DNA from: Fibrobacteria bacterium
GTDB lineage: Bacteria; Fibrobacterota; Fibrobacteria; UBA11236
Direction of reading: 5' to 3'
Length of the DNA stretch: 39,982 nt
Assembly (NCBI GenBank): GCA_041746255.1
Contig: JBGTHM010000119.1
Coordinates: 1 to 39,982 of the forward strand
Positions 1,040 through 24,908 of this stretch are shown here, in pieces; position 1 is the first letter of the stretch, and each line of letters starts with the position of its first letter. The notes under the pieces were generated by a model. It was not told where the DNA came from. It saw nothing but the letters and a program-made list of their open reading frames with translations, and searched no databases. Both the position numbers and the translations under genes were made by a program.

Positions 1040-1864
1040 ATGGCAGCGCTACCGCGAATCATAAAAATCCTGCTGGGCGTGAACGTCGGGCTGTTCCTGT
1101 TGGAGTTTCTCACGGGGGGTGTACTCCTCCGGACCTATTTTTCGCTGGACCACACCGCCCTTTCCCAGTTTCAAATCTGGCGGTTGGTCACCTATATGTT
1201 CGTACACTCAGTGGCTCCTCCTTTTCTCCACATTCTTTTCAATATGCTCATGCTCTGGATGTTCGGTGTGCCGCTGGTTTATGTGCTCGGGGAAAAGAAA
1301 TTCGCTTGGTTCTATTTCGCGGCGGGAGTCTTTTCCGCCTTTTGCACCTTGATTTTCTTTTCCTTTACGGGAGCCACCAATCCCGTCATCGGGGCTTCGG
1401 GCGCAATATTCGGCCTGATGTTCGCCTTCGCGAAATTCTTCCCGACCCAGCAATTTCTGATGTTCTTTATTTTTCCCGTGCAGGCTCGTTACGCCGTCCT
1501 CATTATCGGCGGCATATCCCTCATGCTTATCACTTCGAACGACGGCATAGCGCATATCACCCATTTGGGAGGCGCTCTTTTCGCCTTTCTCTTTTTCCGG
1601 TACGAGGACAAAATTTACGATTTCTACCACGGCTTCAAGAACCGCCGGGGCGTGCGTATGGAAAAGGAAGCACGGAAATCGGAAACCGTCATTGAGCAGG
1701 TCATGGTCGATATCGATCCCATTCTCAAGAAAATATCGGAAACCGGGATCAGTTCGTTGAGCAAAGAGGAGCGGGAGAAGTTGCAGAAGGCCAGCGAATT
1801 GAAGCGGAAACAAAAGTCGAAAATCATAAATTGGGACGAATATCGCAATAAACAGGCCCTCTAG
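1040..1864 (+). CDS. Rhomboid-family intramembrane serine protease with a C-terminal DUF6576-like helical tail
   Basis: WR motif (QIWRLVTYMFVH), HILFNM, catalytic GASG and AHITHLGG; tail IDPILKKISETGISSLSKEEREKL. Start moved to ATG 1040, downstream of the coaD stop. Confidence 0.92.
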   Translation: MAALPRIIKILLGVNVGLFLLEFLTGGVLLRTYFSLDHTALSQFQIWRLVTYMFVHSVAPPFLHILFNMLMLWMFGVPLVYVLGEKKFAWFYFAAGVFSAFCTLIFFSFTGATNPVIGASGAIFGLMFAFAKFFPTQQFLMFFIFPVQARYAVLIIGGISLMLITSNDGIAHITHLGGALFAFLFFRYEDKIYDFYHGFKNRRGVRMEKEARKSETVIEQVMVDIDPILKKISETGISSLSKEEREKLQKASELKRKQKSKIINWDEYRNKQAL

Positions 1865-1885
1865 GAGAGCCGATGTTTCGCGACT

Positions 1886-4282
1886 TCAGTTCCGACCGAA
1901 GTCGATTTCCGAATTCCATTGCAAGCCCCAACCCGCTCCGTCCGGCCCCCACCCACCCCTCAGGCTGTTGCGCACTCCGAAACCCGCCCACCGCGCTTCG
2001 AACCGCAATCCCGCGCCGATACGCTGGTTGAATGTGCCGCGCATGGGAAAGTCTTCGCGCCATAGCCCCATGCCGGCCCAAAAGCCATAGTCCAAGGAAC
2101 GCCAGGCCTCCAGCCGGCTGAAAAAGACCATGTTCTCCTTGGCCGTTGCGTCGCGCGTAATGCGTTGAATATGGGGGTGCAGACGATTGTCACCCGTGAA
2201 AAGGGTTTCCCAATCCATGTTCAATCCCGTAGTATCGGCCAGCACTATCGCCTGATGGACGAACCCCTGCACATCCAGTTCGACGCGGTGTACGAGCCCT
2301 TCCGGAAATTGCCAATGGCCCTGGACACGGGTATAAATGCCGCCGGTGACCAGCTTGAAATCGGGAACCCTGAGGGTCAGGCCCAAGTCCACCCATAGAG
2401 CGCGAGGTGGGCGGGAGCTTCCGCTCGGAAGCGGAGGGTAAAGATTGCTTCCGAAATACACAAAAGGCCATTCCTGTTCGCTCCATTCGCGCCATCCGAT
2501 TTGGCGCCGCATATCCGGAACGAAAATCCCCACGCGGCCCTGGCCCAATGCCACATAGGCTTTCAATAGGCTCATACCGGCTTGCCAATGGTGTTCGGTG
2601 GTAAGATAGCGCGGATTGCCGGGCAATACCCGGTAGACCACACGTTGCCTGCCGATATTGCCCGAAGGATCATGCGCCGACAGTTCCGCGGCGTAAAGGC
2701 CGGGCCCATTGGCGTAAAGGTAGAGACGCTCGCCATCCCAGTTAAAAGGGCCGTCCTGGGGCAGCCAGGCTTCGATGATCAGGCTGTCTCCATCGGGGTC
2801 GTTTGCCACGGGGCGGTAATTCACGAATTCCTTTTCCCGGACATGCGCAATGCCCACTTCGCTGGTGAACACCGGAGGACGGTTGGGCGCTACGTCCAGG
2901 CTAATGCTCCGCTCCACCAATTTGTCGTCTTCAATGAAGAAAAAAGTCAGCCGATGAGCCGGGGTCGAGCCGGGTTTGACCGTCAGGATCCCCTCGGTGA
3001 AGTCGGTGCTGTCTTCTCCCACTACCGCTTCGAGATGAAGTCCCCGCTCCGCCCAGTTGCGCATCGACGCGTCCGCGTCCCAATGATAGACATGCCCTTG
3101 GCGCAGCGTATCCCAGGGTAGCTGGAGGTAAAGTCCCTCGGTGAGAATCCATTTGTCCGAAGGGTGCACCGACAGGTTGAATTTATACAGGGTGCTATCA
3201 CCCAGGGGATCGATCAGTGATAAGGCCAGGACTTGCAGTGAATCCGGACTTCCGCGCGGTACCTCCCAAGTGAATATTCTTTTCGTTGAGTCGAATTGCA
3301 TGCCCTCCGGCATTTCCAAAGGCTTCACCCCTACGCTGTATCCGGGATGGTCGGCGTCCACGATGTCGACTTCATAACGCCAGGGACGTCCGACCACCGC
3401 GCGAAATTCAGGGGATTGCGCCAGGCGGGGTGGAGAGTTGTCGCGAGCCATAAGCGTGAATCCCAGCGTATCGCGCCTACCGATTTCGTTGCGTACCGAG
3501 AGGACTAGCGGCCATGTTCCGGTTTTCTTGGGCGTACCTTTGAGAGCATGGGAATTTTTGTCCCAGATAATCCCCTCAGGCAGCTCCCCTTGTATCGAGT
3601 AGGTCAGTGCTTGTGAAGGACTGGCGGGGTCGACGGCCCAAGCCTGCCAGAAGAAGTCGTGTCCGCTGAAGGCAGGGTCGGGGGGCCGGCTGACGATACG
3701 GGGGCTCCCTTGAGGGGGAACGCGACGGATATCGCGCATTCGGAGTTGGGCCAAAAGGGAGGCCGGAGCCAGGAGTTTGAGATGATTGTCTTCGAAAACC
3801 ACGACCATCTGCCGGTTTTCCGGAAGGGATTCGAAATTTTCTTCCAAGGCCTGGATGAGGCGGGCGCCGAGATGATAGGCTTTTTTTTCCGGCTCGGATT
3901 TTACTAAATCGCCACGGGTTTTCCAGGCTTCCACCGTGGCGCGGGCCTGCACCTTCACCAGGGAAGCGGATGTGATTCCCGCAAAGGCTCCCTCGGTGCG
4001 TAGGGTTTGCCAGACATCGGCGTCGATGAGCACGGCTCGATCGCGAAAGCGCATGATGTCGCCCTGGGCTACGCCGATATCGGGATTGTGGATGAGAAAA
4101 ACCGGTTCTCCCAAGGCCTTGAAGCGCGCGGCCAAACGGGCGGCGACCGCTTTATCTTCCAGCGAGGCCAAAGCGTAATAATTCACGGCTTCCCTGCTGT
4201 TTTCGCCATGGACAGGTTTTCCCAGGCAGAGAATCAGCAAGAGAAGGGAAGGAAGGATCCATGTACGGGAACGTGAGGACAT
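1886..4282 (-). CDS. Exported protein with tandem Ig/cadherin-like (He_PIG/CADG-type) repeats and a predicted C-terminal beta-barrel
   Basis: Signal peptide MSSRSRTWILPSLLLLILCLGKPVHG from ATG 4282. Repeats ALTYSIQGELPEGIIWD..LKGTP, VDADHPG..MPEGMQFD and NRPPVF..ANDPDGDSL. Aromatic-rich amphipathic C-terminus ending WGLQWNSEIDFGRN. Confidence 0.72.
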   Translation of the reverse strand: MSSRSRTWILPSLLLLILCLGKPVHGENSREAVNYYALASLEDKAVAARLAARFKALGEPVFLIHNPDIGVAQGDIMRFRDRAVLIDADVWQTLRTEGAFAGITSASLVKVQARATVEAWKTRGDLVKSEPEKKAYHLGARLIQALEENFESLPENRQMVVVFEDNHLKLLAPASLLAQLRMRDIRRVPPQGSPRIVSRPPDPAFSGHDFFWQAWAVDPASPSQALTYSIQGELPEGIIWDKNSHALKGTPKKTGTWPLVLSVRNEIGRRDTLGFTLMARDNSPPRLAQSPEFRAVVGRPWRYEVDIVDADHPGYSVGVKPLEMPEGMQFDSTKRIFTWEVPRGSPDSLQVLALSLIDPLGDSTLYKFNLSVHPSDKWILTEGLYLQLPWDTLRQGHVYHWDADASMRNWAERGLHLEAVVGEDSTDFTEGILTVKPGSTPAHRLTFFFIEDDKLVERSISLDVAPNRPPVFTSEVGIAHVREKEFVNYRPVANDPDGDSLIIEAWLPQDGPFNWDGERLYLYANGPGLYAAELSAHDPSGNIGRQRVVYRVLPGNPRYLTTEHHWQAGMSLLKAYVALGQGRVGIFVPDMRRQIGWREWSEQEWPFVYFGSNLYPPLPSGSSRPPRALWVDLGLTLRVPDFKLVTGGIYTRVQGHWQFPEGLVHRVELDVQGFVHQAIVLADTTGLNMDWETLFTGDNRLHPHIQRITRDATAKENMVFFSRLEAWRSLDYGFWAGMGLWREDFPMRGTFNQRIGAGLRFEARWAGFGVRNSLRGGWGPDGAGWGLQWNSEIDFGRN

Positions 4283-4284
4283 TT

Positions 4285-4833
4285 TCAATAGCCGCGTGTT
4301 TCTTTGGTGAAAGCGCGGAATTCGTTTTCCAGGCGACGCGATTCCGGCCTCTTCCCATAATCCAGCGAGTCGCCTACCGAGAACCACTCCTCTTCAACTT
4401 GGCTCCAAAGCAATCGTCCCAGGCGAAAACTCATGGCATGTCCGCGATCCTGAACGTTCATCGCGATAAAGCGCCCCTCGTCGAAGGCATGTTCGACCAC
4501 CAGGATATTACTGTCGGCGTCGACGGCTTCCACGATGAGCTTCCGTTCAATGGGGTCCTGCCGTGCGGAGAGTTTCCGGCCGTCCAATGAAAAGGCGGTG
4601 CGATAGGCCTCTAAAGCTTCGAGGTTATCCCTTCCATTTGTGAGAACCCAGGCCGCCTGACGGCTCCAGAACGGATCGGCCTGCGCCGCGACGGTTTTGG
4701 CGCGGTCGATATTAACCAGGGGCACCATGATGACCAGCCGTAAAACCAGGATGACGGCCATCATGGCGAGAACGTCCTCCACCGCGATGGCTTCGCCCAG
4801 GAGAAGCGATCTGTTCCGGCGTTTGCGGCTCAA
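4285..4833 (-). CDS. Single-TM protein resembling the MotB/ExbD/TolR N-terminus, with an unrecognised periplasmic domain
   Basis: Basic N-terminus RKRRNR then AVEDVLAMMAVILVLRLVIMVPLV (Asp at the TM start). TTG start overlaps the TGA stop of the upstream MotA/ExbB-like gene (TTGA, 4833-4830). Confidence 0.62.
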   Translation of the reverse strand: MSRKRRNRSLLLGEAIAVEDVLAMMAVILVLRLVIMVPLVNIDRAKTVAAQADPFWSRQAAWVLTNGRDNLEALEAYRTAFSLDGRKLSARQDPIERKLIVEAVDADSNILVVEHAFDEGRFIAMNVQDRGHAMSFRLGRLLWSQVEEEWFSVGDSLDYGKRPESRRLENEFRAFTKETRGY

Positions 4834-5912
4834 TTTTTATCATCCTCGAGAATCTGCAGATGTGCCGGCGCCGCCGCGAGTTGTTTGCCTTTCATGAAAC
4901 TGCGATATTGTTTTTCGAATTCTCCCAATTCGCGGATACGTTCCGCAGTCAACGACTGCAAGCGACCCATCGCCTCGATTTGATCACGCGTATAACCCAT
5001 GGCCTTCACCAGCTTCCGTAAGTTCTCATCCATGGTGGCTTGCGCCTCGAGCAGCACAGCATCCATTTTGGCCTGTCTCTCCAGTAGCTGTTCCTGTTTG
5101 GCTTCCGGGCCGTAGTTTTTACGGATCCAGGGTTGAAGGGTGGTGATGTTCCAGTCATGGAGATGACTGCTGACCGTATCGAAACCACCGTAGGCGCGCT
5201 GCAGAATTTGAATGGTGATGAGTTCAATGAGAATGGAAAGGCCGGTGGCCACGAGGGTGGTAAGGATGGCGTATTCATCTCCTTCGATGGCCGCCGCGAT
5301 GTCACGGATGAAACCCAGTTCGCCGTCCCCCTCTCCCAACCCCAAAATGGCGCGCTTCATGGGAGGGAAGGTCATAATGAGCCCGATTAAAGTGCCGATA
5401 AACCCCAATTTCAAAGTGGTGCGATTCAAAGAAACATGGATGCTTAATACGCCATCATCGCGAATCCCGCGCCTTTCACTGGCGTTTTCAAGCACCGCTT
5501 CCGAGCCGGAAGTTTCGCCTTTAAGTCCGAGATCGACCCAGCGCAGGAGTAAATCGCGCAAATAACCGGGCGGCGTATTGTGCAGAAGGCGAGTCTGCAA
5601 GGCTTTGAGGTCCGGTTCATCCCCAATGGAACGCAGCGCCTTGAGAGTCGAGCTCGCATGGCGGACGCTACGCTTCAGTGAGGCCAAATTGTATTGCGCC
5701 AGCAATTGCGCGATTATGAAAACCGTGAGAATGAGCACCAGGAAAATATCCCGGTACCAGTTGGAATTGAGCATGAAAAATGCGCTTATTGCGAGTAGGA
5801 TAAGGGGGATGGGAATCCAGGCGGCCGAGAAGGCCGTTCTGCCGATGGTCCGCAATTCTTGAAAAGCCAGTCGGATGGAGTTTTCCTCGGCGCGAAGGGT
5901 TTTATCTTCCAT
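4830..5912 (-). CDS. MotA/TolQ/ExbB proton-channel family protein with a C-terminal coiled-coil-like tail
   Basis: Two N-terminal hydrophobic helices, channel motif LGFIGTLIGLIMTF, second channel helix YAILTTLVATGLSILI, then about 120 aa of helical, Q/E/K/R-rich tail. Confidence 0.82.
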   Translation of the reverse strand: MEDKTLRAEENSIRLAFQELRTIGRTAFSAAWIPIPLILLAISAFFMLNSNWYRDIFLVLILTVFIIAQLLAQYNLASLKRSVRHASSTLKALRSIGDEPDLKALQTRLLHNTPPGYLRDLLLRWVDLGLKGETSGSEAVLENASERRGIRDDGVLSIHVSLNRTTLKLGFIGTLIGLIMTFPPMKRAILGLGEGDGELGFIRDIAAAIEGDEYAILTTLVATGLSILIELITIQILQRAYGGFDTVSSHLHDWNITTLQPWIRKNYGPEAKQEQLLERQAKMDAVLLEAQATMDENLRKLVKAMGYTRDQIEAMGRLQSLTAERIRELGEFEKQYRSFMKGKQLAAAPAHLQILEDDKN

Positions 5913-7104
5913 CCAATCCTCCTATGGGCTTGTGCAACCAGGGGTGATCCAGCGCCATTGACAAGGAAAGTCCGGCGTGCAGCTGTCCTCTGGAAAGGTA
6001 ATGGAAATCCACGCGCAGCGTGGTTCCTTTCAGGTTGACATTGTCCTCCCCTGGAAACGGTACCGACATCCCCAGCGGCAGCAATTCAGCGCGCAAAAAC
6101 GGAACCCATCGGCCGGAGGCAAGGAACAATCCCATGGCCCAGCTGCCTTGCCCCAGCGGCAGCTGGCGGATTTCAACTTGATGTACGGGTTTATAATCGG
6201 CCCGTTGCTCGTTGTAAAAGGAGTATCCCAGCATTCCCGTTCGCAAGAAAAAAGCATGCCCGAAGGCGGCCTGGGGCTCACCTGTTATATAGACGATACG
6301 GACGAAGTCGTCGGGGGAGGGAGTGGGACGGGGTTTCGGCGGCGGTTGCAGCCAGAAAAGTTCGGGGTGGGGGCGCTGCGCGTATTGAATGCGATAACGC
6401 AGGGCCGGCACAGCCACGGTAGCCGACCACCACCAATGGTTTGACCACCAGTCCTGGTTTTCGTCGAAGTCCCTACCCCGGTAATAGCGGGTGAGACCCC
6501 CCCCGTAATGGCCCCAATGCGATCCCACCCCTACCCAAACCTGCGGGTGAACCGCTTGCAGCCAGTTCACGTCAAATCTTCTCTCGAATTCGGGAGCCAT
6601 GCCCGGAATCGCGTTCGCGGAGGTTCCAACCGAAAAATCCAAACCCGGTTGCCATCGCCCCTGTTTGAGCAATATCGGGAGGAATCGCTCGCCAAATTCC
6701 GATAATTCCGTATTTGCAATGTGGGAGGGAACTGGATTTTTGCAAGCCGACTGGGATGAGAGGCCATGTTCGGTACAAAGGGAATCCCAAAGCTGAGGAA
6801 CGATGCGGACAATTTCCGTGCCTTCCCGTAAAAGAACCCACTTCGTTTCATTGGGGCTGGAAGTTTGGTTGGCCGGGAGGGTTTTCCAGATTTGGTACAG
6901 ACCGGGAAGGGGCGGCTCTCCCAAAACCGATTCGAGTAGGCCGGCCCACTTAGAGGTATTGGTCGTGGGAAACGCTTCGATAAAGCAAGGATCCGATCCA
7001 GGACAGACTGCCGGCACGGAAAAACTTCCCCCGAAATTCGCATGGGAAAGCCACGGAGAGGCCACGGAGAACAAGAACAATAGGGGTAATTGTAAATGTT
7101 TCAT
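5902..7104 (-). CDS. Exported hypothetical protein, predicted outer-membrane beta-barrel
   Basis: Signal peptide MKHLQLPLLFLFSVASPWLSHA; C-terminal two-thirds has alternating aromatic/Gly strands (VWVGVGSHW, WWWSATVAV, LRVDFHY, LHAGLSLSM). Stop overlaps the next gene by 11 nt. Confidence 0.62.
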   Translation of the reverse strand: MKHLQLPLLFLFSVASPWLSHANFGGSFSVPAVCPGSDPCFIEAFPTTNTSKWAGLLESVLGEPPLPGLYQIWKTLPANQTSSPNETKWVLLREGTEIVRIVPQLWDSLCTEHGLSSQSACKNPVPSHIANTELSEFGERFLPILLKQGRWQPGLDFSVGTSANAIPGMAPEFERRFDVNWLQAVHPQVWVGVGSHWGHYGGGLTRYYRGRDFDENQDWWSNHWWWSATVAVPALRYRIQYAQRPHPELFWLQPPPKPRPTPSPDDFVRIVYITGEPQAAFGHAFFLRTGMLGYSFYNEQRADYKPVHQVEIRQLPLGQGSWAMGLFLASGRWVPFLRAELLPLGMSVPFPGEDNVNLKGTTLRVDFHYLSRGQLHAGLSLSMALDHPWLHKPIGGLDGR

Positions 7105-7298
7105 GAGGGCAAGGATGGGTACCTCTCAAAAACGAAAAATCGGAACAACCGCGCAACGCATTTTACCCATGACGGAACGGGCCGGGAATGGGGAGTATTC
7201 AATGGTAGTAATTTTGAAATTGGGCCGTAAATAGGCCTGATTTGTTAGATTTCTCCAGTCTGTGCCCACATCCGAAATTGATTGCAAAGGAAGAATCT

Positions 7299-9971: not shown

Positions 9972-11372
9972 TCAGCCGGCTTGCGCGGCCGCCCGCTCCT
10001 CTTCCTCCAATCCATGCTCCTTTAATTTGCGCCACAAGGTGGAGCGGGATATGCCTAGCCGCCGGGAAGTTTCCGTGTAATTGTTGTTACAGATTTCCAA
10101 AGCCTTTTTAATATAGCGTTTTTCCAATTCCGCCAGGGTCATGAGGCTGACGTTGTCGATGGGAGGCCCGCCTTCGGCAGACTCCGATTTGGGTAGGGCG
10201 AAAAGGGGCCTGGGCCCGTTGGGATTAACCAGGTATTCCGGCAAATCCGCTAAAGTGATATATTCCCCTTCCGAAAGCGCAACGGCATGTTCGATGATAT
10301 TCTCGAGCTGCCGGATGTTACCCGGGTAATCGTAATTCATGAGGACGGCTTCCGCGTTTTTCGCCATTCCCTTGATATGCTTGCGATTGGCGGTGTTGCA
10401 CTTTTTGACGAAGGTGCGCACCAGATTGGGAATGGAGCTTTTACGTTCCCGCAGCGGAGGGAGCGTCAAATGGAAAATACTGAGCCGGTAATAGAGATCC
10501 TCCCGAAAGGACCCCGCCGCGATGGATTTGTGCAAATCCTTGTTGGTGGCGGCAATCACACGCACGTCCACATAGCGGGTTTCCGTATCGCCTACCCTGC
10601 GGATTTCCTTTTCTTGGAGAAACCGCAGCAATTTCACCTGGGTGGGAAGCGAGAGTTCTCCGACTTCGTCCAGGAATAGCGTGCCTTTGTCAGCGACTTC
10701 CAGCAGACCCTTCCTATCGGCGATGGCGCCTGTGTAGGATCCTTTGCGTGAGCCGAACAGTTCGGATTCCACCAGGTTTTCGGGTATGGCGCCGCAATTG
10801 ACGGCGACGAAATTCTCTTCGGATCGGCTGCTGAGCCGATGGATGATGTTCGCCAGGAATTCCTTGCCCGTTCCGCTTTCCCCCGACAATAGGATAGTGC
10901 TGTTGGTGGGAGCCACCTTGGTGACGGTTCGGAGGATTTTCTTCATGGCCGGAGAACTGCCCAGTACATCCTCGAGCAGGCGCTCTTCCAATACGCGCAC
11001 GTTTTTGCGGTTCAACGAGCGGGATACGGCCTTGAGGGCCAGCGTCTCCAGTAACTTTACATTGACGGGTTTGATGAGAAAGGAGTGGGCGCCCCGCTCC
11101 ACGGCCTGCTCGGCCTTTTGGGTGTCGCGCACGGTGGCCAATACGAAAGTTTCCACTCCCGGATTATGCTCACGGGCAAAATCGATGATGTCGAGGTTTT
11201 CGATGGTAAGTAGATCGGCGGAGACGAAAAGCGCGCCAATCCCCCCCTGGGTAAGCAGCCGGATGGCGTTGGCGCCTCCGTTGCTTTCCATCAATTCCGT
11301 GTCCCGCAGCGACCAGTTCGCAAAAACCTCTTTCTTGAGTTCGGAATCGGTGTCAAGGATGAGGATTTTCAT
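9972..11372 (-). CDS. Sigma54-dependent (NtrC/Fis-type) enhancer-binding protein with a degenerate receiver domain
   Basis: Walker A GESGTGKE, NCGAIPENLVESELFG, GSYTGA loop, Walker B TLFLDEVGE, FREDLYYRL, YPGNIRQL, C-terminal HTH LGISRSTLWRKL. Confidence 0.92.
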   Translation of the reverse strand: MKILILDTDSELKKEVFANWSLRDTELMESNGGANAIRLLTQGGIGALFVSADLLTIENLDIIDFAREHNPGVETFVLATVRDTQKAEQAVERGAHSFLIKPVNVKLLETLALKAVSRSLNRKNVRVLEERLLEDVLGSSPAMKKILRTVTKVAPTNSTILLSGESGTGKEFLANIIHRLSSRSEENFVAVNCGAIPENLVESELFGSRKGSYTGAIADRKGLLEVADKGTLFLDEVGELSLPTQVKLLRFLQEKEIRRVGDTETRYVDVRVIAATNKDLHKSIAAGSFREDLYYRLSIFHLTLPPLRERKSSIPNLVRTFVKKCNTANRKHIKGMAKNAEAVLMNYDYPGNIRQLENIIEHAVALSEGEYITLADLPEYLVNPNGPRPLFALPKSESAEGGPPIDNVSLMTLAELEKRYIKKALEICNNNYTETSRRLGISRSTLWRKLKEHGLEEEERAAAQAG

Positions 11373-11398
11373 AACGCGATGGGTTGCGGCCCTGGCGA

Positions 11399-12520
11399 CT
11401 AGGAGAAAATCGTTTTGGCCTTATCGAATAGGGACGGTTTGGGCTGTTCCTGGGATTGGATTTTTTCCAACTCCTGGAGCAATTCGGTTTCGCGGGAACT
11501 GAGACTAGTAGGGGTGAAAACATGGACTTTCACGTATTGGCTGCCGCGTCGTCCGCCGCTTAATTCCGGCAGGCCCTTATGGCGAAGCCGCAGCATTTTT
11601 TCGGATTGGGTGCCGGCGGGAATTTTCAGCTCCACTTCGCCGTCAATGGTTTTGACGCGCACTTCGCCTCCCAGAGCCACGGTGGTGAAAGGCACTTCCA
11701 CCTGGCAATAAAGATCGATTCCGCGACGCTCGAAATACTCGTCCTTGGTCTCTTTGATAATCACCAGCAAGTCACCCGATGGGCCGCCCTGCGGTCCGCG
11801 ATGTCCTTCGCCGCGCAAGGTGAGGTATTGTCCCTCCTCCACTCCCGCGGGAATGTCGATGGAAATGGTGACCTCTTCGAGTATCCGGCCTTCGCCATGG
11901 CAATTGGAGCATAACGACTGGATGGTGGATCCCATGCCCCGGCAATCGGGACAAGTCGCGACGTTTACGATTTGTCCGAAGAAAGAGCTTTGTACTTGTC
12001 GGACCTGCCCGACACCGCCGCAGGTTTTGCAGGTTTGTTTGCCCGTACCGCCGGCTCCGGCGCACGAACCGCATTTGTTATAGCGCTTCAGTTTGACTTT
12101 CTTCGTCACTCCCTGGGCGACTTCGCTCAAGTCGACTTCCAGGGCGATTTGCAAATCCTGTCCGCGGGGAGGACCGGATCGGGCTCTGCCCCCGCGACCG
12201 GCACGGCCAAAGGCGTCGCCTCCGAAAATATCCCCGAAAGCGCTGAAGATATCCTCGAAATTATTGAAGCCCTCGGAGGATCCCATGCCGCCTTGCATGC
12301 CGGCGTGGCCAAAACGGTCGTATTGGGCGCGCTTCTGGGTGTCGCTCAATACCCCGTAAGCTTCCGCGGCTTCCTTGAATTTTTCTTCGGCTTGGGTATC
12401 GCCGGGATTCTTATCGGGATGGAATTTTACGGCCAGCTTTTTATATGCAGTTTTAATGACCACTACGTCTGCATCCCGCGGCACACCCAGCACTTCGTAA
12501 TAATCTTTTTTACTCGACAT
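11399..12520 (-). CDS. dnaJ: Chaperone DnaJ
   Basis: J-domain with HPD, G/F region, four CxxCxGxG zinc-finger repeats. Confidence 0.98.
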
Positions 12521-12539
12521 AGTTCACCTTACACAACAC

Positions 12540-12608
12540 GGGGATGGAAACGTCGGAATGGAAACGGGACGCCCACGCGATCGGCGTGGGGTCCGTATTT
12601 TCATCCCG
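12540..12608 (-). promoter_or_regulatory. Stable hairpin in the dnaK-dnaJ intergenic region (possible terminator/attenuator or stabiliser)
   Basis: Stem CCCACGC-GATCG-GCGTGGG extended by GGAC/GTCC and by GGGATGGAAA/TTTTCATCCC. Confidence 0.4.
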
Positions 12609-12649
12609 GTTAAATCTAATCCGAAAAGGGTTTAAAGACCCGAGGTGGC

Positions 12650-14584
12650 CTAATCGACCACCTCATAATCGGCGTCAACCGCATTGTCCTTACCTTTATC
12701 CTTCTTCTTCGATCCATCGGCATCGGGAGCTTCGCCTCCCTCGCCCGCAGCTGCTCCGCCACCGGCTTGCGCGCTTTCGGCGGCGGCTTTGTACATGGCT
12801 TCGGAAAGTTTGTGCGACGATTCCTCCACCTTGCGGATGGCCGTGCGTATGCCCTCGAGATCGTCCGAGCCCTGGATTTTTTTCAGGTCGGCTACGGCCG
12901 CTTCGATGGCCTCCTTATCGGAAGCCGGAACCTTGTCGCCATGCTCCTTGAGTAGCTTCTCGGTGCTATAGACCAGATTCTCGGCCTGGTTGTGCACTTC
13001 GGCCTTTTCCTTCTCGATTTTATCGAGTTCGGCATTGGCCTCGGCTTCTTGTACCATGCGCTGGATTTGTTCCTCGGAAAGTCCCGAAGAGGCTTCGAGG
13101 CGAATCTTCTGTTCTTTGCCCGTAGCCTTATCCTTGGCGCTCACGTGCACGATGCCGTTCGCATCGATGTCAAAGGTGACTTCGATTTGCGGCAGCCCAC
13201 GCGGAGAGGCGGGAATACCCGTCAACTCGAATTTGCCGAGCGTGCGGTTGTGACGCGCCATTTCACGCTCACCTTGCAAGACATGAATGCTAACCGCCGT
13301 TTGATTGTCTTCGGCGGTGGAAAAGATTTGGCTCTTACGCGTCGGAACCGTGGTATTGCGCTCGATGAGTTTGGTCATGACTCCGCCCAGGGTTTCGATT
13401 CCCAGGGACAAAGGAGTTACGTCGAGCAGGAGCACGTCCTTCACCGAAGATTCGCCCGCGAGGACGCCGGCCTGGACTGCGGCTCCGATAGCCACAACTT
13501 CATCAGGGTTCACTCCCTTGTGGGGTTCCTTACCGAAAAATTCCTTGACCTTGTCCTGTATGGCCGGAATTCGTGTGGAACCGCCGACCAGGATGACCTC
13601 ATCGATGTCACCGGTGGTTTTACCGGCGTCTTTAAGGGCCTGGATGCAGGGTTGAATGCTCTTTTCCACCAATTCCAGTGTAAGTTGGTCGAATTTGGCG
13701 CGGGTGAGCGTCAAATCGAGATGTTTGGGCCCGCTCGCATCGGCCGTTATGAACGGCAGGTTGATGGTGGTGCTGGTGGTGCCCGATAAATCGATTTTAG
13801 CCTTCTCGGCGGCTTCCTTTAGACGTTGCAACGCCATGCGGTCGCCACGCAAGTCAATACCCTGTTCACGCTTGAACTCCGAGGCGATCCAGTCGATAAC
13901 GGCTTGGTCGAAGTCGTCGCCACCCAAATGCGTATTACCATTGGTGGCTTTTACCTCGAATACTCCGTCGCCGATTTCCAGGATGGAAATATCGAATGTG
14001 CCTCCACCCAAATCGTATACGGCGATGGTTTCGCTTTTTTTCTTGTCGAGGCCGTAGGCCAGCGCCGCGGCGGTGGGCTCGTTCACGATGCGCAGTACTT
14101 CAAGACCGGAGATACGGCCCGCATCCTTGGTGGCCTGGCGCTGGGAGTCGTTGAAGTAGGCGGGTACGGTTACCACCGCCTGGGTCACTTCTTCGCCAAG
14201 ATAATCTTCTGCGATTTTTTTCATGGCCTGGAGAACCATGGCCGAGATTTCCGGTGGAGTATATCGCTTGCCCATGATTTCCACCGATACGGGATCGGCT
14301 GCCGTGCCGACGACCTTATAGGGAACGCGTTTCTCTTCCGACTCCACTTCGCTATGGGTGCGTCCCATGAAACGTTTGATGGAATAAACCGTGTTTTCCG
14401 CGTTGGTAATGGCTTGCCGCTTGGCTACCTGTCCCACCAGCCGCTCGCCGCCCTTGGTGAAGGCCACGATGGACGGGGTGGTGCGCGCACCTTCCGCGTT
14501 GGGAATGACGGTTGGTTTTCCGCCTTCCATAACCGCAACGCATGAGTTGGTGGTTCCTAAGTCGATTCCGATGATTTTGCCCAT
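12650..14584 (-). CDS. dnaK: Chaperone DnaK (Hsp70)
   Basis: [42 protein letters not shown]-terminus VDADYEVVD. Confidence 0.99.
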
Positions 14585-14614
14585 GATGTTCCCTTTCGTT
14601 TTCCTTTTCTTTTG

Positions 14615-15172
14615 CTAATCCTGGCCGCTGCCCTGGGAGACGATGACCTTGGCATGTTTGATGACTTTCGCCTTGACCTTATAGCCTTTTTGCAATACCT
14701 GAATGACATGATTCTCCGGAATTTCCGGATGCGGCTGTTGCATCAGCGCCTCATGCAGGTTCGGGTCGAATTGCGCTCCCACGGGTTCAAGTTCTTCCAA
14801 GCCCTCCTCTTCCAACACTTGCTTGAATTTGTTGAAGATGAGATGGACTCCTTTTTCAAAATCTTCCAATTTTTCCGCCTTGAGACGGGGGTCGAACGCC
14901 AGGTAAAAATTGTCGAGCACCTCGGTGAGTTTGGCGATGAGCTTGTTGTTGGCCGTGGCCTCCAATTCAAAGCGCTCCTTGGCGGTGCGGCGGCGGAAAT
15001 TCTCGAACTCGGCGTACATGCGGAGGTATTTATCCTTGAGTTCGGCGTTCTCCTTAACCAAATCCCGCTCGGCTGTGGCGCCCTGGGCTTCGGTGGACAA
15101 CTCTTCCGTTTCCCGCGCTTCCGATAGCAGCTCTTCGGCTTCGGTTTGTCCGTTATTTTCTGTTTGTGACAT
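14615..15172 (-). CDS. grpE: Nucleotide exchange factor GrpE
   Basis: YLRMYAEFENFRRR, FDPNLHEAL, QKGY; between hrcA and dnaK. Confidence 0.97.
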   Translation of the reverse strand: MSQTENNGQTEAEELLSEARETEELSTEAQGATAERDLVKENAELKDKYLRMYAEFENFRRRTAKERFELEATANNKLIAKLTEVLDNFYLAFDPRLKAEKLEDFEKGVHLIFNKFKQVLEEEGLEELEPVGAQFDPNLHEALMQQPHPEIPENHVIQVLQKGYKVKAKVIKHAKVIVSQGSGQD

Positions 15173-15190
15173 GGATCCTCTTTTTACCCT

Positions 15191-16240
15191 TTAGGATTTC
15201 TCTTGCGCGGCATGCATTCTCGTAAGTGACTTGGCCGCGTAGTCCACCAAGGGGATGACTTTCGCATAAGGCATACGCTTGGGGCCGATTACGCCGACGA
15301 TTCCCGATGCCTTGCCTTGCTTATAGGTGGAAGTGATGGCAGCGACGGAACGGAAGGTCTTCCCATTTTCGATTTCTTCGCCTATGGTCACTTGCACTCC
15401 ATCTCTATGGCTCAAATCACGCAAAAATCGTACCAGGATATCTCGGGATTCAAGCATGTCGAGAATAGGGGCAAGAGCCTCAAATTTTTCAAATTCAGGC
15501 TGCATAAGCATGTTTTTGGTACCAAAATACTGCATCGCGTTTTCCAGTTGCTCTCGGATTAGTTTCGAAATGGAACGATCCAAAAATTGGATAGCGCGTA
15601 AATCTTCCGTGGAAATTTGATTTTGGCTTTCGCTGCGCAAGTAAGTGTTCAAAAATGAAACGGGCTTTCCTTTCATCAAAACATTAACTTTTCGGGCAAT
15701 GGCTTCCAACCGGTAAATGGAGGTATCTATCGCGTTTTCCAGTAAAAGCGTTCGAAAGACCATTTCCGAAGCCGAAAGCACCAACATGATTTTGGTTTCC
15801 GCCACGGGCACGAGCGAAATCTGTTCGAATGCCTCTTCTTGGAAGGAAGGGGATAGCGAAAGACCCAGCAAATTGGTAAGCCGCCCTAATACCTTGGCGA
15901 TTTGCGCCATAATCTCGTTATCATCGCCTTCCCGGACAATTTCCCTATCGATGCACTGCTTTTCCTGCAAAGTGCTTTCTTCGAAATGCACCAACTCATT
16001 TACATAGGCGCGATAGCCTCTATCGGTGGGCCTGCGCCCGGCGGAGGTATGGGGCTGTTCCAAATAGCCCAGCTCTTCCAATTCGGCCATGGTATTGCGA
16101 ATGGTGGCGGCGCTGGCGTCGAATCGGGGGTTCTGACTGATAATTTTAGAAGAGATCGGTTCCGCTTTTTGGACATATTCGTCGACGATGGCCGCTAGGA
16201 CCCACTTTTGTCTTCCACTTAAAGCGGCTTCCGGAAACAT
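15191..16240 (-). CDS. hrcA: Heat-inducible transcription repressor HrcA
   Basis: LAAIVDEYV..EPISSK, ATIRNTMAELEELGYLEQPHTSAGRRPTDRGYR, GVIGPKRMPY. Confidence 0.97.
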   Translation of the reverse strand: MFPEAALSGRQKWVLAAIVDEYVQKAEPISSKIISQNPRFDASAATIRNTMAELEELGYLEQPHTSAGRRPTDRGYRAYVNELVHFEESTLQEKQCIDREIVREGDDNEIMAQIAKVLGRLTNLLGLSLSPSFQEEAFEQISLVPVAETKIMLVLSASEMVFRTLLLENAIDTSIYRLEAIARKVNVLMKGKPVSFLNTYLRSESQNQISTEDLRAIQFLDRSISKLIREQLENAMQYFGTKNMLMQPEFEKFEALAPILDMLESRDILVRFLRDLSHRDGVQVTIGEEIENGKTFRSVAAITSTYKQGKASGIVGVIGPKRMPYAKVIPLVDYAAKSLTRMHAAQEKS

Positions 16241-16261
16241 TCGATTCGTACTCCTGATGGC

Positions 16262-16297
16262 AAAAAGTCCCCCGACCTTCTAACAGCCGGGGGACTT
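16262..16297 (-). terminator. Intrinsic terminator-like hairpin between groEL and hrcA
   Basis: Minus strand AAGTCCCCCGG-loop-TCGGGGGACTTTTT. A second small hairpin GGGCGC-GCAAA-GCGCCC lies at 16319-16335. Confidence 0.75.
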
Positions 16298-16343
16298 CGC
16301 TTGGATTGGGGAAAGCAAGGGCGCGCAAAGCGCCCCGGCAGCA

Positions 16344-18331
<1,988 letters not shown>

Positions 18332-20236: not shown

Positions 20237-20844
20237 AAGCCGCGGAGGCCTATTTCGGTGGCCGGGGTTATGTGCTGGGAGCTTTATGGGCCGCACTCCT
20301 TCTCGGCCGAGTCCATTCCTTCGCTCCCCTGCGACCCTTGGCGCTGGTCCCCGTAGCGGCCGGATTTTTTCTGCGGCTATGGGCTTCCCGGTATATCGGC
20401 GCCCACAGCAACGGCATGGTAATGGCGCCCGGCCGGGGTCTCTCGGACGAGGCAACGGCGGCGGGCGGGATGGCCACGGGCGGCCCTTATGCCTTAATGC
20501 GCCACCCGCTTTACCTTTCCAACCTGTTGGTGGCCTCTGGAGCGATTTATTTCGCCAACAGCGGTAGGACACGCGGCCGCTTGGCCTTGCTTACGGCGGT
20601 GTCTTCGCACCATTTGTTGCTGGTTCGGGTGGAAGAGCGCTACCTCTGGAAAACCCTGGGAGAAATTTATGCGCGGTATCGCGAGGTAACTCCTTTGTTA
20701 CCGGGAATCGGAGGCGGGTCCGGGTTCTCCCAGGCGGGGCCCGCTCCCTTCTCGTGGCGCGAAGCCTTCGCTCGTCAGGGAGGCAATCTCGCTCGGGCTT
20801 GCGCGGCTATAGCGATATTGGCGGCGGCACGATGGCGGCGTTGA
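20233..20844 (+). CDS. Isoprenylcysteine carboxyl methyltransferase (ICMT/PEMT) family membrane methyltransferase
   Basis: LRLWASRYIG, ATGGPYALMRHPLYLSN, EERYLWKTLGEIYARYREVTP; GTGA overlap with the ABC gene. Confidence 0.85.
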   Translation: MKAAEAYFGGRGYVLGALWAALLLGRVHSFAPLRPLALVPVAAGFFLRLWASRYIGAHSNGMVMAPGRGLSDEATAAGGMATGGPYALMRHPLYLSNLLVASGAIYFANSGRTRGRLALLTAVSSHHLLLVRVEERYLWKTLGEIYARYREVTPLLPGIGGGSGFSQAGPAPFSWREAFARQGGNLARACAAIAILAAARWRR

Positions 20845-22232
20845 CGCTTTACTCCCTTTTGTGGACCGCACTGTGGCCTTTACTTCGTTTGCTGGCCCGT
20901 TGCGAAGCCGTCGCGCGCAAAATCGGGTTTTCTCCCTGGCCGGAAAGCTGGGCCCTGAGCCGGCGCATGGCTTCGGAGCAGGGTTCGCCGCATGTGCTTT
21001 TTCCAACATCTGCGCCTCAAAGGGAGGTTTTGTGGATCCACTGCGCCTCTCTGGGAGAAGCAAAAGGCGTAGCGGGAATGTTACCTAACCTAGAGGATAA
21101 GGCGGCGGAGATTCTGCTTACGGCGGGCACCCTCACCGGTCTCGAATTTTTACGCGGGGAAGCCGCGCTAAGATTCGGCCATCGCGAAAAGTCGCCTCGG
21201 GTTCGGGTGGAAATGGCGCCGTTCGACCACCTTCCCCATGTCGGGAAATTTCTCGACGGTAACCGCGTGGCCGTCCTTTGCCTATACGAGGTGGAAATCT
21301 GGCCGCATTACCTGCGAGCTTGCCGGGAAAGGAATATTCCCGTTCTGCTGGCCGCGGCGCGTCTTTCCTCCCGGGCTTATGCCCGCCTTCGCCCCTTCAC
21401 CCAGCTCTATGCCCGCTTATTGGGATCTCTCGATTTTATCCAAACCCAAAGTGAAGCGGATACCCAAAGGTTTCAGGCCCTGGGCGTGAAACCGCCCCTG
21501 GGCTTGGAAACGGGTGCGGATTTCCGGTTGCTGCATTATCTCCAACGGGCGTCGGCAACGACGGACGCGGGGAAGTTACCTGGATTGCCAGGGCAGGGAA
21601 GGGGATTCGCCTTCATCTCCCTACACCTTGCCGAACTCCGCATCTTGCTTCCGACCCTGCGCGCCTTTCCATCCCAGGTGCCGGTGTGGGTTTTCCCCCG
21701 TCTGCCCCAAGAATTAAATCGTTTCCGCAAGCTTTTGCATCCCTTAGGGTTTAGGGATTTTTCGGGCGATTCGGTTGAAGAAACCCTCGACCCCAACACG
21801 CGCTTGGGGCGGGAAACGCTGCAGGGCCCTCGGCTGTTGGTTTGCAGGTGGGGAATGGTCTCACCGCTGTTGACGTCCTGCTACGCCTGTTTCGTGGGCG
21901 GTAGCCTGATTGGCCGTGGTTGCCATAACTTATGGGAGCCCTGGCTGGCGGGATTACGGATTTGCTTCGGCCCTTCGCTGGAAAACCAGGAAACTCCCGC
22001 GCGATTCCTATTGGAGACGAAAGAGGGAGTTATTGTCCGGAGTCCGGATGAACTGAACCGTTATATACTCTCGATGCTTCCATTCATTGGAAGGGATAGG
22101 CTGAACCGGAGCCAGGTTGACTTTCCCGAAGGAATGCGAATCGACGCGCAGGCTGCGAATAAGCGTTTTGGGGAGGTAGTGAGCCGGGCCTTCGCGGAAT
22201 CGACTCGTAGAGCCATGCCGCAAATTTATTAG
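20832..22232 (+). CDS. waaA: Kdo transferase WaaA (divergent)
   Basis: N-terminal anchor, LWIHCASLGEA, APFD, YEVEIWP, ARLS, TQSEADTQRF, FVGGSL..HNLWEP, FGP. Start set at ATG 20832. Confidence 0.85.
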   Translation: MAALTLYSLLWTALWPLLRLLARCEAVARKIGFSPWPESWALSRRMASEQGSPHVLFPTSAPQREVLWIHCASLGEAKGVAGMLPNLEDKAAEILLTAGTLTGLEFLRGEAALRFGHREKSPRVRVEMAPFDHLPHVGKFLDGNRVAVLCLYEVEIWPHYLRACRERNIPVLLAAARLSSRAYARLRPFTQLYARLLGSLDFIQTQSEADTQRFQALGVKPPLGLETGADFRLLHYLQRASATTDAGKLPGLPGQGRGFAFISLHLAELRILLPTLRAFPSQVPVWVFPRLPQELNRFRKLLHPLGFRDFSGDSVEETLDPNTRLGRETLQGPRLLVCRWGMVSPLLTSCYACFVGGSLIGRGCHNLWEPWLAGLRICFGPSLENQETPARFLLETKEGVIVRSPDELNRYILSMLPFIGRDRLNRSQVDFPEGMRIDAQAANKRFGEVVSRAFAESTRRAMPQIY

Positions 22233-22286: not shown

Positions 22287-23225
22287 GTGAAAATTTTTCT
22301 CGCTTCTCCCAGAGGATTTTGCGCCGGGGTCGACCGGGCCATCAGTATCGTGGAAGAGGCCTTGCGGAAATTCGGCAAACCGGTTTATGTTCGTCATGAA
22401 ATCGTGCATAATCAAGCCGTCGTTTCCCGTCTCAAGGAGAAGGGCGCCATTTTCGTGGAAGAGCTCGAAGAGGTTCCGGAAAAATCAGTGGCGATTTTTT
22501 CCGCCCATGGAGTGCCGCGCGCGGTGCATATCGAGGCGCAGGACCGCTCCTTGATTACGGTTGACGCCACTTGCCCCCTGGTTAAGCGCGTACACTCGTC
22601 GGTGATGCGGCATACCAGCAAGAATTTGCAGGTCGTACTCATTGGCCACCGGGGACACCCCGAAGTGGTGGGCACCATGGGACAGTTGCCGGATGGCCAG
22701 GTTCTCTTGGTGGAAACCCCGCAAGATGTGTGGAAACTGGAAGGAGTGGACGAAGAAAATCTGGCCTATACCACCCAAACCACGTTATCCATCGAAGAGA
22801 CGCGCGACGTTATTATCGAACTCAAGAAACGCTTTCCTCAAATCAAAGGACCCGACAAGGGTGATCTTTGCTATGCCACTACCAATAGGCAACGAGCCGT
22901 GCAGGAAATGGCGGTAATGGTGGACATGCTGCTGGTTATCGGTTCAGCGAACAGTTCCAACAGCAACCGGCTGCGCGAATTAGGCGAGCGCATCGGTAAA
23001 AAATCCTATCTCATCGACAGCCCCGTCGACCTGCGCGAGGAGTGGTTTGAAGGGGTGGAGAATATCGGCATTTCTTCGGGAGCCTCGGCGCCGGAAGACT
23101 TGGTACAGGACGTGGTCCGATGGATTAAGGCGCGCTACCCCGGCACCGAATCCGAAGATTACGTGATTCTCGAAGAAAACGTCCATTTCTCCCTGCCGGA
23201 AATTCTGCGTTCCTCTTCGAAGTGA
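22287..23225 (+). CDS. ispH: 4-hydroxy-3-methylbut-2-enyl diphosphate reductase
   Basis: PRGFCAGVDRAI, HEIVHN, DATCPLV, LCYATTNRQ, SSNSNRL, GASAPE. Confidence 0.98.
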   Translation: MKIFLASPRGFCAGVDRAISIVEEALRKFGKPVYVRHEIVHNQAVVSRLKEKGAIFVEELEEVPEKSVAIFSAHGVPRAVHIEAQDRSLITVDATCPLVKRVHSSVMRHTSKNLQVVLIGHRGHPEVVGTMGQLPDGQVLLVETPQDVWKLEGVDEENLAYTTQTTLSIEETRDVIIELKKRFPQIKGPDKGDLCYATTNRQRAVQEMAVMVDMLLVIGSANSSNSNRLRELGERIGKKSYLIDSPVDLREEWFEGVENIGISSGASAPEDLVQDVVRWIKARYPGTESEDYVILEENVHFSLPEILRSSSK

Positions 23226-24696: not shown

Positions 24697-24908
24697 ATGC
24701 ATTTCATCCCATCGACCTAGCTCACATTTACCATCAATTTCTCAAATTTTTCTAAGGATAATAGGAAGGGTAAAAACCAAGAAAACCCAAAATCGGGCCG
24801 TTACCGCTGAGTTTCCACCCTTTTCAGACAGCCTCTCCACTGCTTATATTCATTTCGCGCATTACCGCTACAAAAATTGAAAGAGTGCCGGAAAGAGGCC
24901 GATTAGCC

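Follow-up and report, generated by a model that had tools for sequence, protein, structure and literature searches.

In a 39,982-nucleotide stretch of DNA from a Fibrobacteria bacterium (contig JBGTHM010000119.1 of assembly GCA_041746255.1, hereafter the window), four tightly packed genes on the minus strand, termed A, B, C, and D in their order of transcription, encode proteins that we propose form an envelope-spanning, lineage-specific, ion-driven motor complex, a reading that we regard as reasonably probable. Ion motors of the 5:2 type power flagella, TonB-dependent uptake, Tol-Pal, gliding, type IX secretion, and Zorya defense, and each new set of motor partners has revealed a new way of doing work at the envelope. 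What is known here is the motor superfamily; what is new is the B branch of it, the three partner modules, and a stalk that we propose to be supplied by the outer membrane. A first-pass annotation of the same DNA had suggested a self-contained energized complex at this locus. Of that interpretation, the cassette, the motor relations of B and C, the two barrels, and the lack of known partners held up on analysis, and the contact between C and D is weakly predicted.

The four genes form a predicted single operon. Read base by base, the A stop codon (TAA, 5904-5902) lies within an 11-nucleotide overlap with B, whose ATG (5912-5910) has a GGAGGA close to its 5' side; C and B share the four nucleotides TTGA (C start TTG, 4833-4831; B stop TGA, 4832-4830); and two nucleotides separate the C stop codon (TGA, 4287-4285) from the D ATG at 4282. 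The longest open reading frame of D opens with a GTG at 4387, and it is the ATG at 4282 that gives a signal peptide. The cassette is flanked on one side by genes for an rsmD-like methyltransferase, coaD, and a rhomboid protease, and on the other by a pfkB-family kinase, IMPDH, a sigma-54 activator, hrcA-grpE-dnaK-dnaJ, and groEL. Both the close packing and the unrelated housekeeping flanks had been pointed out before, and coordinates, junctions, and neighbors all agree with that description.

The same arrangement recurs well beyond the window, among environmental Fibrobacterota. Relatives of B occur in 29 of 41 related genomes, and in all 30 loci that we fetched, B, C, and D have the same order and strand, with D cut by a contig end in four; tblastn found A in 25 of the 30. 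The spacing between B and C is at most 10 nucleotides in 30 of 30 loci, and that between A and B in 22 of 25. A scan of one genome per species, partly overlapping the first set, yielded 48 loci with C in 46, D in 45, and A in 36, all misses of C and D falling at contig ends. When divergent forms of A were sought, 12 of 13 loci proved to have an open reading frame of 330-472 residues with a signal-like start directly upstream of B. The order A-B-C-D is kept in every Fibrobacterota locus long enough, down to ≈30% identity, and its return in identical form throughout the phylum puts the arrangement far outside what chance would give. The neighborhood survey thus bears out the expectation that the four genes are conserved together elsewhere. 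Four genomes (G009, G013, G017, and G018) carry a second, paralogous cassette (L038, L039, L040, and L032); in L038-L040 the D protein is ≈85 residues shorter (709-717 residues) through lack of the domain at 390-465, and the B tail is longer, giving B proteins of 398-419 residues.

By sequence, B is a remote member of the MotA/ExbB/TolQ superfamily. Since the window copy falls below the Pfam threshold, the assignment rests on family-level evidence: 15 of 34 aligned relatives match MotA_ExbB (PF01618) at an expectation value (E) ≤0.01, the best at 1.6e-7, and when the 34 relatives were compared by hhalign with seven canonical ExbB, TolQ, and MotA proteins encoded in the same genome, the probability was 83.7% (E 8e-6, 78 columns), the aligned region being the G-F-x-G-T-L-x-G helix and the helix that follows it. 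The earlier identification of B as a MotA/TolQ/ExbB channel subunit is therefore upheld for the family and falls short of the Pfam cut-off for the window copy itself. Hydropathy places hydrophobic segments at residues 26-51, 52-79, and 214-238, the last being the fourth transmembrane helix (TM4), with a Gly/Thr-rich signature helix at 166-186; by analogy, the layout is MotA-like, with four helices and an 86-residue cytoplasmic insert. The core carries the motif LKxGFxGTLxGxxxTFPPM ... AIxxTLxATxxSxxxE, in which T174, T181, and E230 are invariant. Its mean identity in the family is 71.7%, and 54.8% of its columns are conserved at ≥80%. The C-terminal 95 residues, judged by composition, are probably helical or a coiled coil. 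This tail varies in length, with inserts of ≈50-100 residues among relatives, and its mean identity is 27.2% versus 46.2% for a conserved tip at residues 326-350, which suggests an additional cytoplasmic partner.

The B family is a sharply isolated branch: searched against 1.84 billion representative proteins, a profile of the B core retrieved only 54 at E ≤0.001. Of these, 41 score ≤1e-30, and five weak outliers (E 1.8e-4 to 7.1e-4), of which three match PF01618 at E ≤0.01, are set apart by a gap. Public database names for the relatives are "hypothetical protein" and, in a few cases, "biopolymer transport protein ExbB/TolQ". One outlier, the 354-residue metagenome protein P0283, matches ZorA models (best E 1.2e-12) at half the length of ZorA and may connect the B family with motors of the Zorya type.

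C adjoins B, as expected of a MotA/ExbB-type pair, and has a basic N terminus, one hydrophobic segment at residues 9-45 by hydropathy, and a 137-residue periplasmic domain. At position 19, all 26 aligned relatives have an acidic residue (Glu in 25 and Asp in one), and by analogy with MotB, ExbD, and TolR, Glu19 is a candidate ion-binding carboxylate; it stands at the start of the transmembrane helix in a motif that we take to resemble that of MotB. Asp20 varies (D, E, S, or T), and Arg32, inside the helix, is near-invariant. The single-helix partner with a conserved carboxylate is thus as first described, except that the conserved acid is Glu19 and not the Asp that had been named. The public gene call for C, P0204 (159 residues, 100% identical over 87% of the query), begins at Met24 and omits the conserved N terminus together with acidic position 19 (window 4764-4833); because these upstream residues are conserved in 26 relatives, the TTG start is supported. 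No Pfam domain was found in any of 131 relatives of C or in the 26 aligned ones, and none of these 26 has an OmpA-family match at E ≤1. When eight ExbD proteins encoded in the same genome were compared with C by hhalign, the result was 2.8%, over the transmembrane helix only.

D and A are both predicted to end in 12-stranded barrels of the outer-membrane type. D has a signal peptide, an α/β N-domain at residues 35-180 that is modeled confidently only to about residue 105, a stalk of three immunoglobulin (Ig)-like domains and one sandwich domain, and then the barrel, which in the model begins 4 residues past the last Ig strand, no helix intervening. The AlphaFold2 model, built on 25 alignment rows, has a predicted local distance difference test score (pLDDT) of 79.1 and a predicted template modeling score (pTM) of 0.39. 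The He_PIG Ig domain is found in the window D at E 4.3e-8 and in 25 of 25 relatives, and Foldseek with the full D model matched only tandem Ig and cadherin chains; the Foldseek and VIA-align structure comparisons covered D beyond residues 1-190. The N-domain is better conserved than the barrel (mean identity 55.6% versus 34.5%), and a search with it matched only D orthologues (15 matches of 717-822 residues). The lengths of D fall into two narrow classes, 789-864 residues in 21 complete copies and 709-719 residues in five, the short forms lacking the 390-465 domain. Because the model has no linker helix, the lengths are nearly fixed, and the N-domain is the most conserved part, the D stalk is probably periplasmic.

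A has a signal-peptide-like start, an α/β N-domain at residues 41-112, and, just before its barrel, short helices at 135-140 and 144-148, resembling those of FapF-type gated channels. A has no Pfam family, and comparison of the A and D profiles (0.3%) indicates that the two are not paralogues. The best structural matches of both barrels are the autotransporter β-domains of BrkA, AIDA-I, Hbp, and NalP; the barrels of KdgM, FapF, and COG4313 score about equally. Signal-like starts, AlphaFold2 models, and structure searches, together with He_PIG in D, accord with what had been read from the sequence earlier, namely that A is an exported β-rich protein and D an exported Ig-repeat protein with a barrel-like C terminus.

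A contact between the motor and D was examined by a complex prediction with two copies of C residues 40-182 and the D N-domain (residues 28-195). The median score was 0.58 (runs of 0.55, 0.64, and 0.58), versus 0.00 for the best of three controls, with contact agreement of at least 61%, partner pLDDT of at least 68, and the verdict "weak support". In calibration, 116 of 157 solved complexes and two of 215 mismatched pairs came up to the mark. The prediction lends weak support to a contact of the C periplasmic domain with the D N-domain and, at the same strength, marks the D N-domain as a candidate docking site for C.

From these elements we propose the following mechanism. MotAB, ExbBD, and TolQR are ion-driven motors in which a ring of channel subunits surrounds a partner dimer. 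By analogy, B would form a ring around a dimer of C, and ion flow by way of C Glu19 and the Thr/Glu-lined core of B would turn that ring. The periplasmic domain of C would hold the N-domain of D, as the weak computational contact hints, and the D stalk, consisting of the N-domain and four further domains, would hang from the D barrel into the periplasm. The force transducer would therefore be supplied by D from the outer membrane and not by an inner-membrane protein such as TonB or TolA. In the most speculative step, pull or torque on the small barrels of D and A would gate or drive the passage of a substrate, or would move or hold the outer membrane, and the tip of the B tail would engage a further cytoplasmic partner. 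Gating or transport through the barrels is a tentative choice for the motor output; we place it ahead of the others on the ground that the cassette has two different small barrels, and gated channels such as FapF and KdgM belong to this kind.

Several observations weigh against such a complex. The window copy of B scores only E 0.062 and 13.5 bits against PF01618, for which the cut-off is 22.9, and the B-family profile searched against PDB sequences returned only chance matches to coiled-coil and other helical chains, with no ExbB, TolQ, or MotA. In the C family, Pfam and hhalign detect no ExbD, TolR, or MotB domain, and the ESM Atlas gave no usable match from which to assign a fold, either for C with its periplasmic domain or for D residues 28-195 with the N-domain. 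With its pTM of 0.39, the model does not fix the relative placement of the D domains. At scores ≤0.60, only 18 of the 157 solved complexes reach the calibration mark, together with both passing mismatches; the C-D job, with its own alignments and three chains, differs from the calibration set-up; and a prediction in the "weak support" class is, by the tool's own account, likelier to be wrong than right, save where the guess had good odds to begin with. No RNA data set was listed among the sequencing runs that hold the sequence; the sole such run is of DNA and may be the source of the assembly. Finally, the patchy occurrence of the cassette in the phylum (53 of 296 genomes, as described below) indicates that it is dispensable for many members.

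Distribution was assessed with a profile of C, chosen as the family without cross-matching relatives. Across the phylum, 53 of 296 genomes carry the C family; among the high-quality genomes the count is 36 of 172. Broken down by family, it is present in 27 of 31 genomes of f1, 10 of 12 of f4, 2 of 2 of f8, 7 of 46 of f13, 2 of 8 of f14, 1 of 2 of f7, 1 of 6 of f2, and 2 of 151 of f5; it is absent from all 101 genomes of the largest genus (g16) and was not found in the other families searched. The tallies of B relatives among the 41 genomes, of the C family, and of FliG include an unpublished genome, G021, which is positive and without which the f1 count is 26 of 30; it is part of no alignment or model. 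Within the family of the window, different genera retain the pfkB/IMPDH and rhomboid/coaD/rsmD flanks, so the cassette appears to have been inherited vertically and not as a mobile island.

The 48 loci come from metagenome-assembled genomes labeled Fibrobacterota, Fibrobacteria, Fibrobacteres, Chitinispirillaceae, or Fibrobacterales, with six exceptions: three labeled only "bacterium" and three bearing Bifidobacterium-type names. The latter (L061, CAYNXV010000021.1; L084; and L090) are labeled "uncultured Bifidobacteriales" or "Bifidobacterium sp.", and L061 has full synteny and a B that is 78% identical to that of the window; these contigs look like mislabeled Fibrobacterota bins. In five loci from another family (L088, L093, L096, L102, and L106), a gene resembling NAD-dependent sugar epimerases/decarboxylases (start MHRVLVTGGSGFLGS...) precedes A in place of pfkB, a different neighbor that is likewise related to envelope sugars.

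A link to flagella was considered and rejected. FliG_C is found in 134 of the 296 genomes, and the cassette does not follow it: of the 12 genomes of genus g5, 10 carry the cassette but 1 has FliG_C, and of the 7 genomes of family f17, all have FliG_C and none the cassette. B resembles the channel subunit of MotAB/PomAB in its four-helix layout, its large cytoplasmic insert between TM2 and TM3, and its cytoplasmic C terminus. C differs from the MotAB/PomAB partner in lacking an OmpA-like peptidoglycan-binding domain.

The cassette shares with Ton and Tol an inner-membrane MotA/ExbB-superfamily channel that adjoins a single-helix partner with a carboxylate in the helix, and also outer-membrane barrels as presumed targets and the delivery of energy to the outer membrane as its would-be job. 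It differs from both in that B has, by hydropathy, four transmembrane helices instead of three and a long C-terminal tail, that C has no ExbD/TolR domain, that an inner-membrane transducer of the TonB/TolA kind is missing, and that the stalk belongs to an outer-membrane protein. Its barrels have 12 strands, whereas TonB-dependent transporters have 22 and a plug; neither a TonB_C domain nor a 22-stranded receptor was found among the four proteins, and Pfam finds no TolA, TolB, or Pal in the cassette. Other contigs of the same genome hold 12 canonical MotA_ExbB, 11 ExbD, and 10 TonB_C matches, and contig C28 carries a Tol-like cluster of TolQ, TolR, a TonB_C-type protein, and TolB_N. Because canonical Ton and Tol clusters are present on these contigs, the cassette is, judged from gene content, an addition to Ton and Tol and replaces neither. 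On contigs C99, C19, and C1 of G000 we also observed three clusters of a long MotA_ExbB protein (497-560 residues, with an N-terminal extension), a short ExbB, an ExbD, and a TonB_C protein; the TonB_C frame at C1:8313-8543 holds an in-frame TGA.

The first alternative to be weighed is that the cassette serves Tol-Pal-like envelope maintenance, with D and A acting as outer-membrane anchors only and nothing passing through the barrels. We give this a small but appreciable chance. Its anatomy would be the same as that of the proposed motor complex, and the housekeeping synteny, the near-universal presence in two families, and the outer loops of the barrels, which strand spacing suggests to be short, would all suit such a role. 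The genome already has its canonical Tol-like cluster on another contig, however, and in most of the phylum the cassette did not turn up. Two different barrels, one of them with FapF-like helices before it, also sit poorly with simple anchoring.

A second alternative, which we consider improbable, is that D and perhaps A are autotransporter-like adhesins whose barrel exports the N-domain and Ig repeats, with B and C energizing secretion, attachment, or gliding. That autotransporter β-domains are the best structural matches of both barrels speaks for it and counts against the motor complex as we propose it, since the Ig domains of D may on that account be displayed at the cell surface. He_PIG, cadherin-like, and SraP-like Ig repeats are also typical of adhesins. 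Both proteins, in their models, have the 12-stranded C-terminal barrel of a type Va autotransporter. The linker helix of that type is missing before the D barrel, however, and its Pfam domain is absent from all 25 D and 26 A relatives. FapF, KdgM/NanC, and type Va barrels are likewise 12-stranded and show no sequence-family match to A or D, and the near-equal scores of the KdgM, FapF, and COG4313 barrels take weight from the autotransporter matches. Barrels of these kinds are not known to work with an ion motor. The repeats are near-fixed in number, unlike in adhesins, and the part of D that would be most distal, the N-domain, is the most conserved and is weakly predicted to bind the C periplasmic domain. 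Fibrobacterota are described (PMC6851124 and PMC11700989) as polymer degraders that attach to their substrates, which would suit an adhesin. Adhesion or gliding and polymer uptake, both raised by the first-pass annotation, may be functions of the cassette.

Phage or envelope-damage sensing, also raised there, fares less well. A Zorya-like sensor that signals through the B tail to an effector is very unlikely in our estimation. It could draw on the likeness of B to ZorA, that is, a MotA/ExbB-type protein with a helical cytoplasmic tail of variable length, here with a conserved tip, and on the ZorA match of outlier P0283. The tail is short (≈95 residues), however, the partners are outer-membrane barrels, and the cassette holds no effector gene and no ZorC, ZorD, or ZorE. 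PADLOC, its ZorA and ZorB models included, matched none of the four proteins at E ≤1, as had been expected of a system outside the known defense repertoire, and ZorA models matched only 1 of 34 B relatives, at E 0.009. The fixed position between housekeeping genes across genera and the presence in 27 of 31 genomes of one family are unlike a defense island, and the same stable synteny and near-universal presence in two families make phage sensing unlikely. That the four genes are mere neighbors, for instance a motor pair for an unrelated partner beside two ordinary porins, is scarcely credible, for although the sole complex prediction is weak (0.58), the frames overlap, the order survives at ≈30% identity and in the paralogous copy, and the searches made turned up relatives of the C periplasmic domain, the D N-domain, and A nowhere but in the cassette.

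We therefore return to the motor complex and to the systems it most resembles. The GldLM/PorLM motor of the type IX secretion system, from the Fibrobacteres-Chlorobi-Bacteroidetes group, has a periplasm-spanning stalk of Ig-like domains. In GldM, the axle subunit of the motor itself, the stalk has an inner-membrane anchor, whereas the cassette stalk is on an outer-membrane barrel protein; the Pfam scan of the four proteins gave no match to Gld or Por families. NCBIfam gave no meaningful match for any of the four, and across Pfam, NCBIfam, and PADLOC no TonB, TolA, FliG, Glt, or Zor partner was matched in the cassette, in line with the earlier observation that none is present. The Agl-Glt system combines AglR/Q/S, of the TolQ/TolR type, with GltC/D/E/G, which include tetratricopeptide repeat (TPR) and TonB-like proteins, according to the portion of PMC3169522 covered; the cassette has four genes only, in which Pfam finds no TPR, TonB_C, or ExbD domain, the Glt proteins not having been queried. 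Force transducers of the von Willebrand factor A family for TolQ/ExbB-type motors have been found through synteny and structure prediction (PMC12204202). According to the same paper, these are tethered to the inner membrane and bind the motor by a transmembrane helix, whereas the candidate transducer of the cassette is anchored in the outer membrane; the word "Fibrobacter" does not occur in that paper. In the portions covered of the full-text literature, including PMC6851124, PMC12505986, PMC12204202, and PMC3169522, we found no description of the cassette, a negative that extends to main texts and not to supplementary tables, where a homologue could be listed (one such place being the "generic ion transporters" of PMC12505986). 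With no signature of Ton, Tol, Zorya, or Agl-Glt and no description in this literature, the cassette still qualifies as the candidate undescribed system it had been called.

In its fullest form, the motor complex would be an "inverted TonB", in which an outer-membrane receptor reaches down to the motor, the motor gates two small barrels, and a ZorA-like tail leads to a cytoplasmic partner. We put this forward as a possibility that we ourselves think doubtful. If true, it would be a third logic for coupling the inner membrane's ion gradient to the outer membrane, and force or signals could pass in both directions across the whole envelope. More generally, if an outer-membrane protein supplies the stalk, energized outer-membrane processes need no transducers of the TonB/TolA type, with a bearing on the evolution of diderm envelopes and on uptake and secretion by the polymer-degrading Fibrobacterota. 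These ideas can be tested at the bench because a cultured putative carrier exists: Chitinispirillaceae strain ANBcel5 (PMC11700989) encodes a B homologue (P0102, 40% identity).

Positions of the cassette genes, their parts, and the cassette borders are collected in Table 1.

Table 1. The four-gene cassette and its borders, in window coordinates
Feature	Position	Strand	Description
Gene A	5902-7104	-	400 residues; exported; small α/β N-domain and 12-stranded barrel (predicted)
A barrel	5947..6645	-	Residues 154-386, 12 strands (DSSP of AlphaFold2 model)
Gene B	4830-5912	-	360 residues; divergent channel subunit of the MotA/ExbB/TolQ superfamily
B core	5199..5417	-	Residues 166-238: TM3, 27-residue loop, TM4
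B cytoplasmic tail	4833..5117	-	Residues 266-360
Gene C	4285-4833	-	182 residues; TTG start; partner with a single transmembrane helix
C Glu19 codon	4777..4779	-	Near cytoplasmic end of transmembrane helix
Gene D	1886-4282	-	798 residues from ATG; signal peptide, N-domain, stalk, 12-stranded barrel (predicted)
D N-domain core	3953..4180	-	Residues 35-110, most conserved part of D
D stalk	2624..3700	-	Residues 195-553: Ig 195-280, Ig 290-373, sandwich 390-465, Ig 475-553
D barrel	1898..2611	-	Residues 558-795, 12 strands (predicted)
Terminator-like hairpin	1855..1871	-	15 nucleotides past D stop codon; suggestive by position only
A-pfkB gap	7105..7241		137 nucleotides, pfkB divergent; presumed promoter region of the cassette

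At the borders, terminator-like sites are no commoner in the window than in shuffles (9 found versus 8.0 expected). The gap upstream of A holds no sigma-70-like site, in a scan that was not above shuffles.

Elsewhere in the window, the heat-shock block hrcA-grpE-dnaK-dnaJ, with groEL upstream, lies on the minus strand within 9972-18002, and after it comes the sigma-54 activator, which has a weak receiver domain (9972-11372). On the plus strand, a 697-residue open reading frame (24885-26978) joins a Bac_transf sugar transferase, a polysaccharide deacetylase, and DUF3473 in an unusual three-part fusion, near a Kdo-transferase-like gene (20754-22232) and lytB/ispH (22287-23225).

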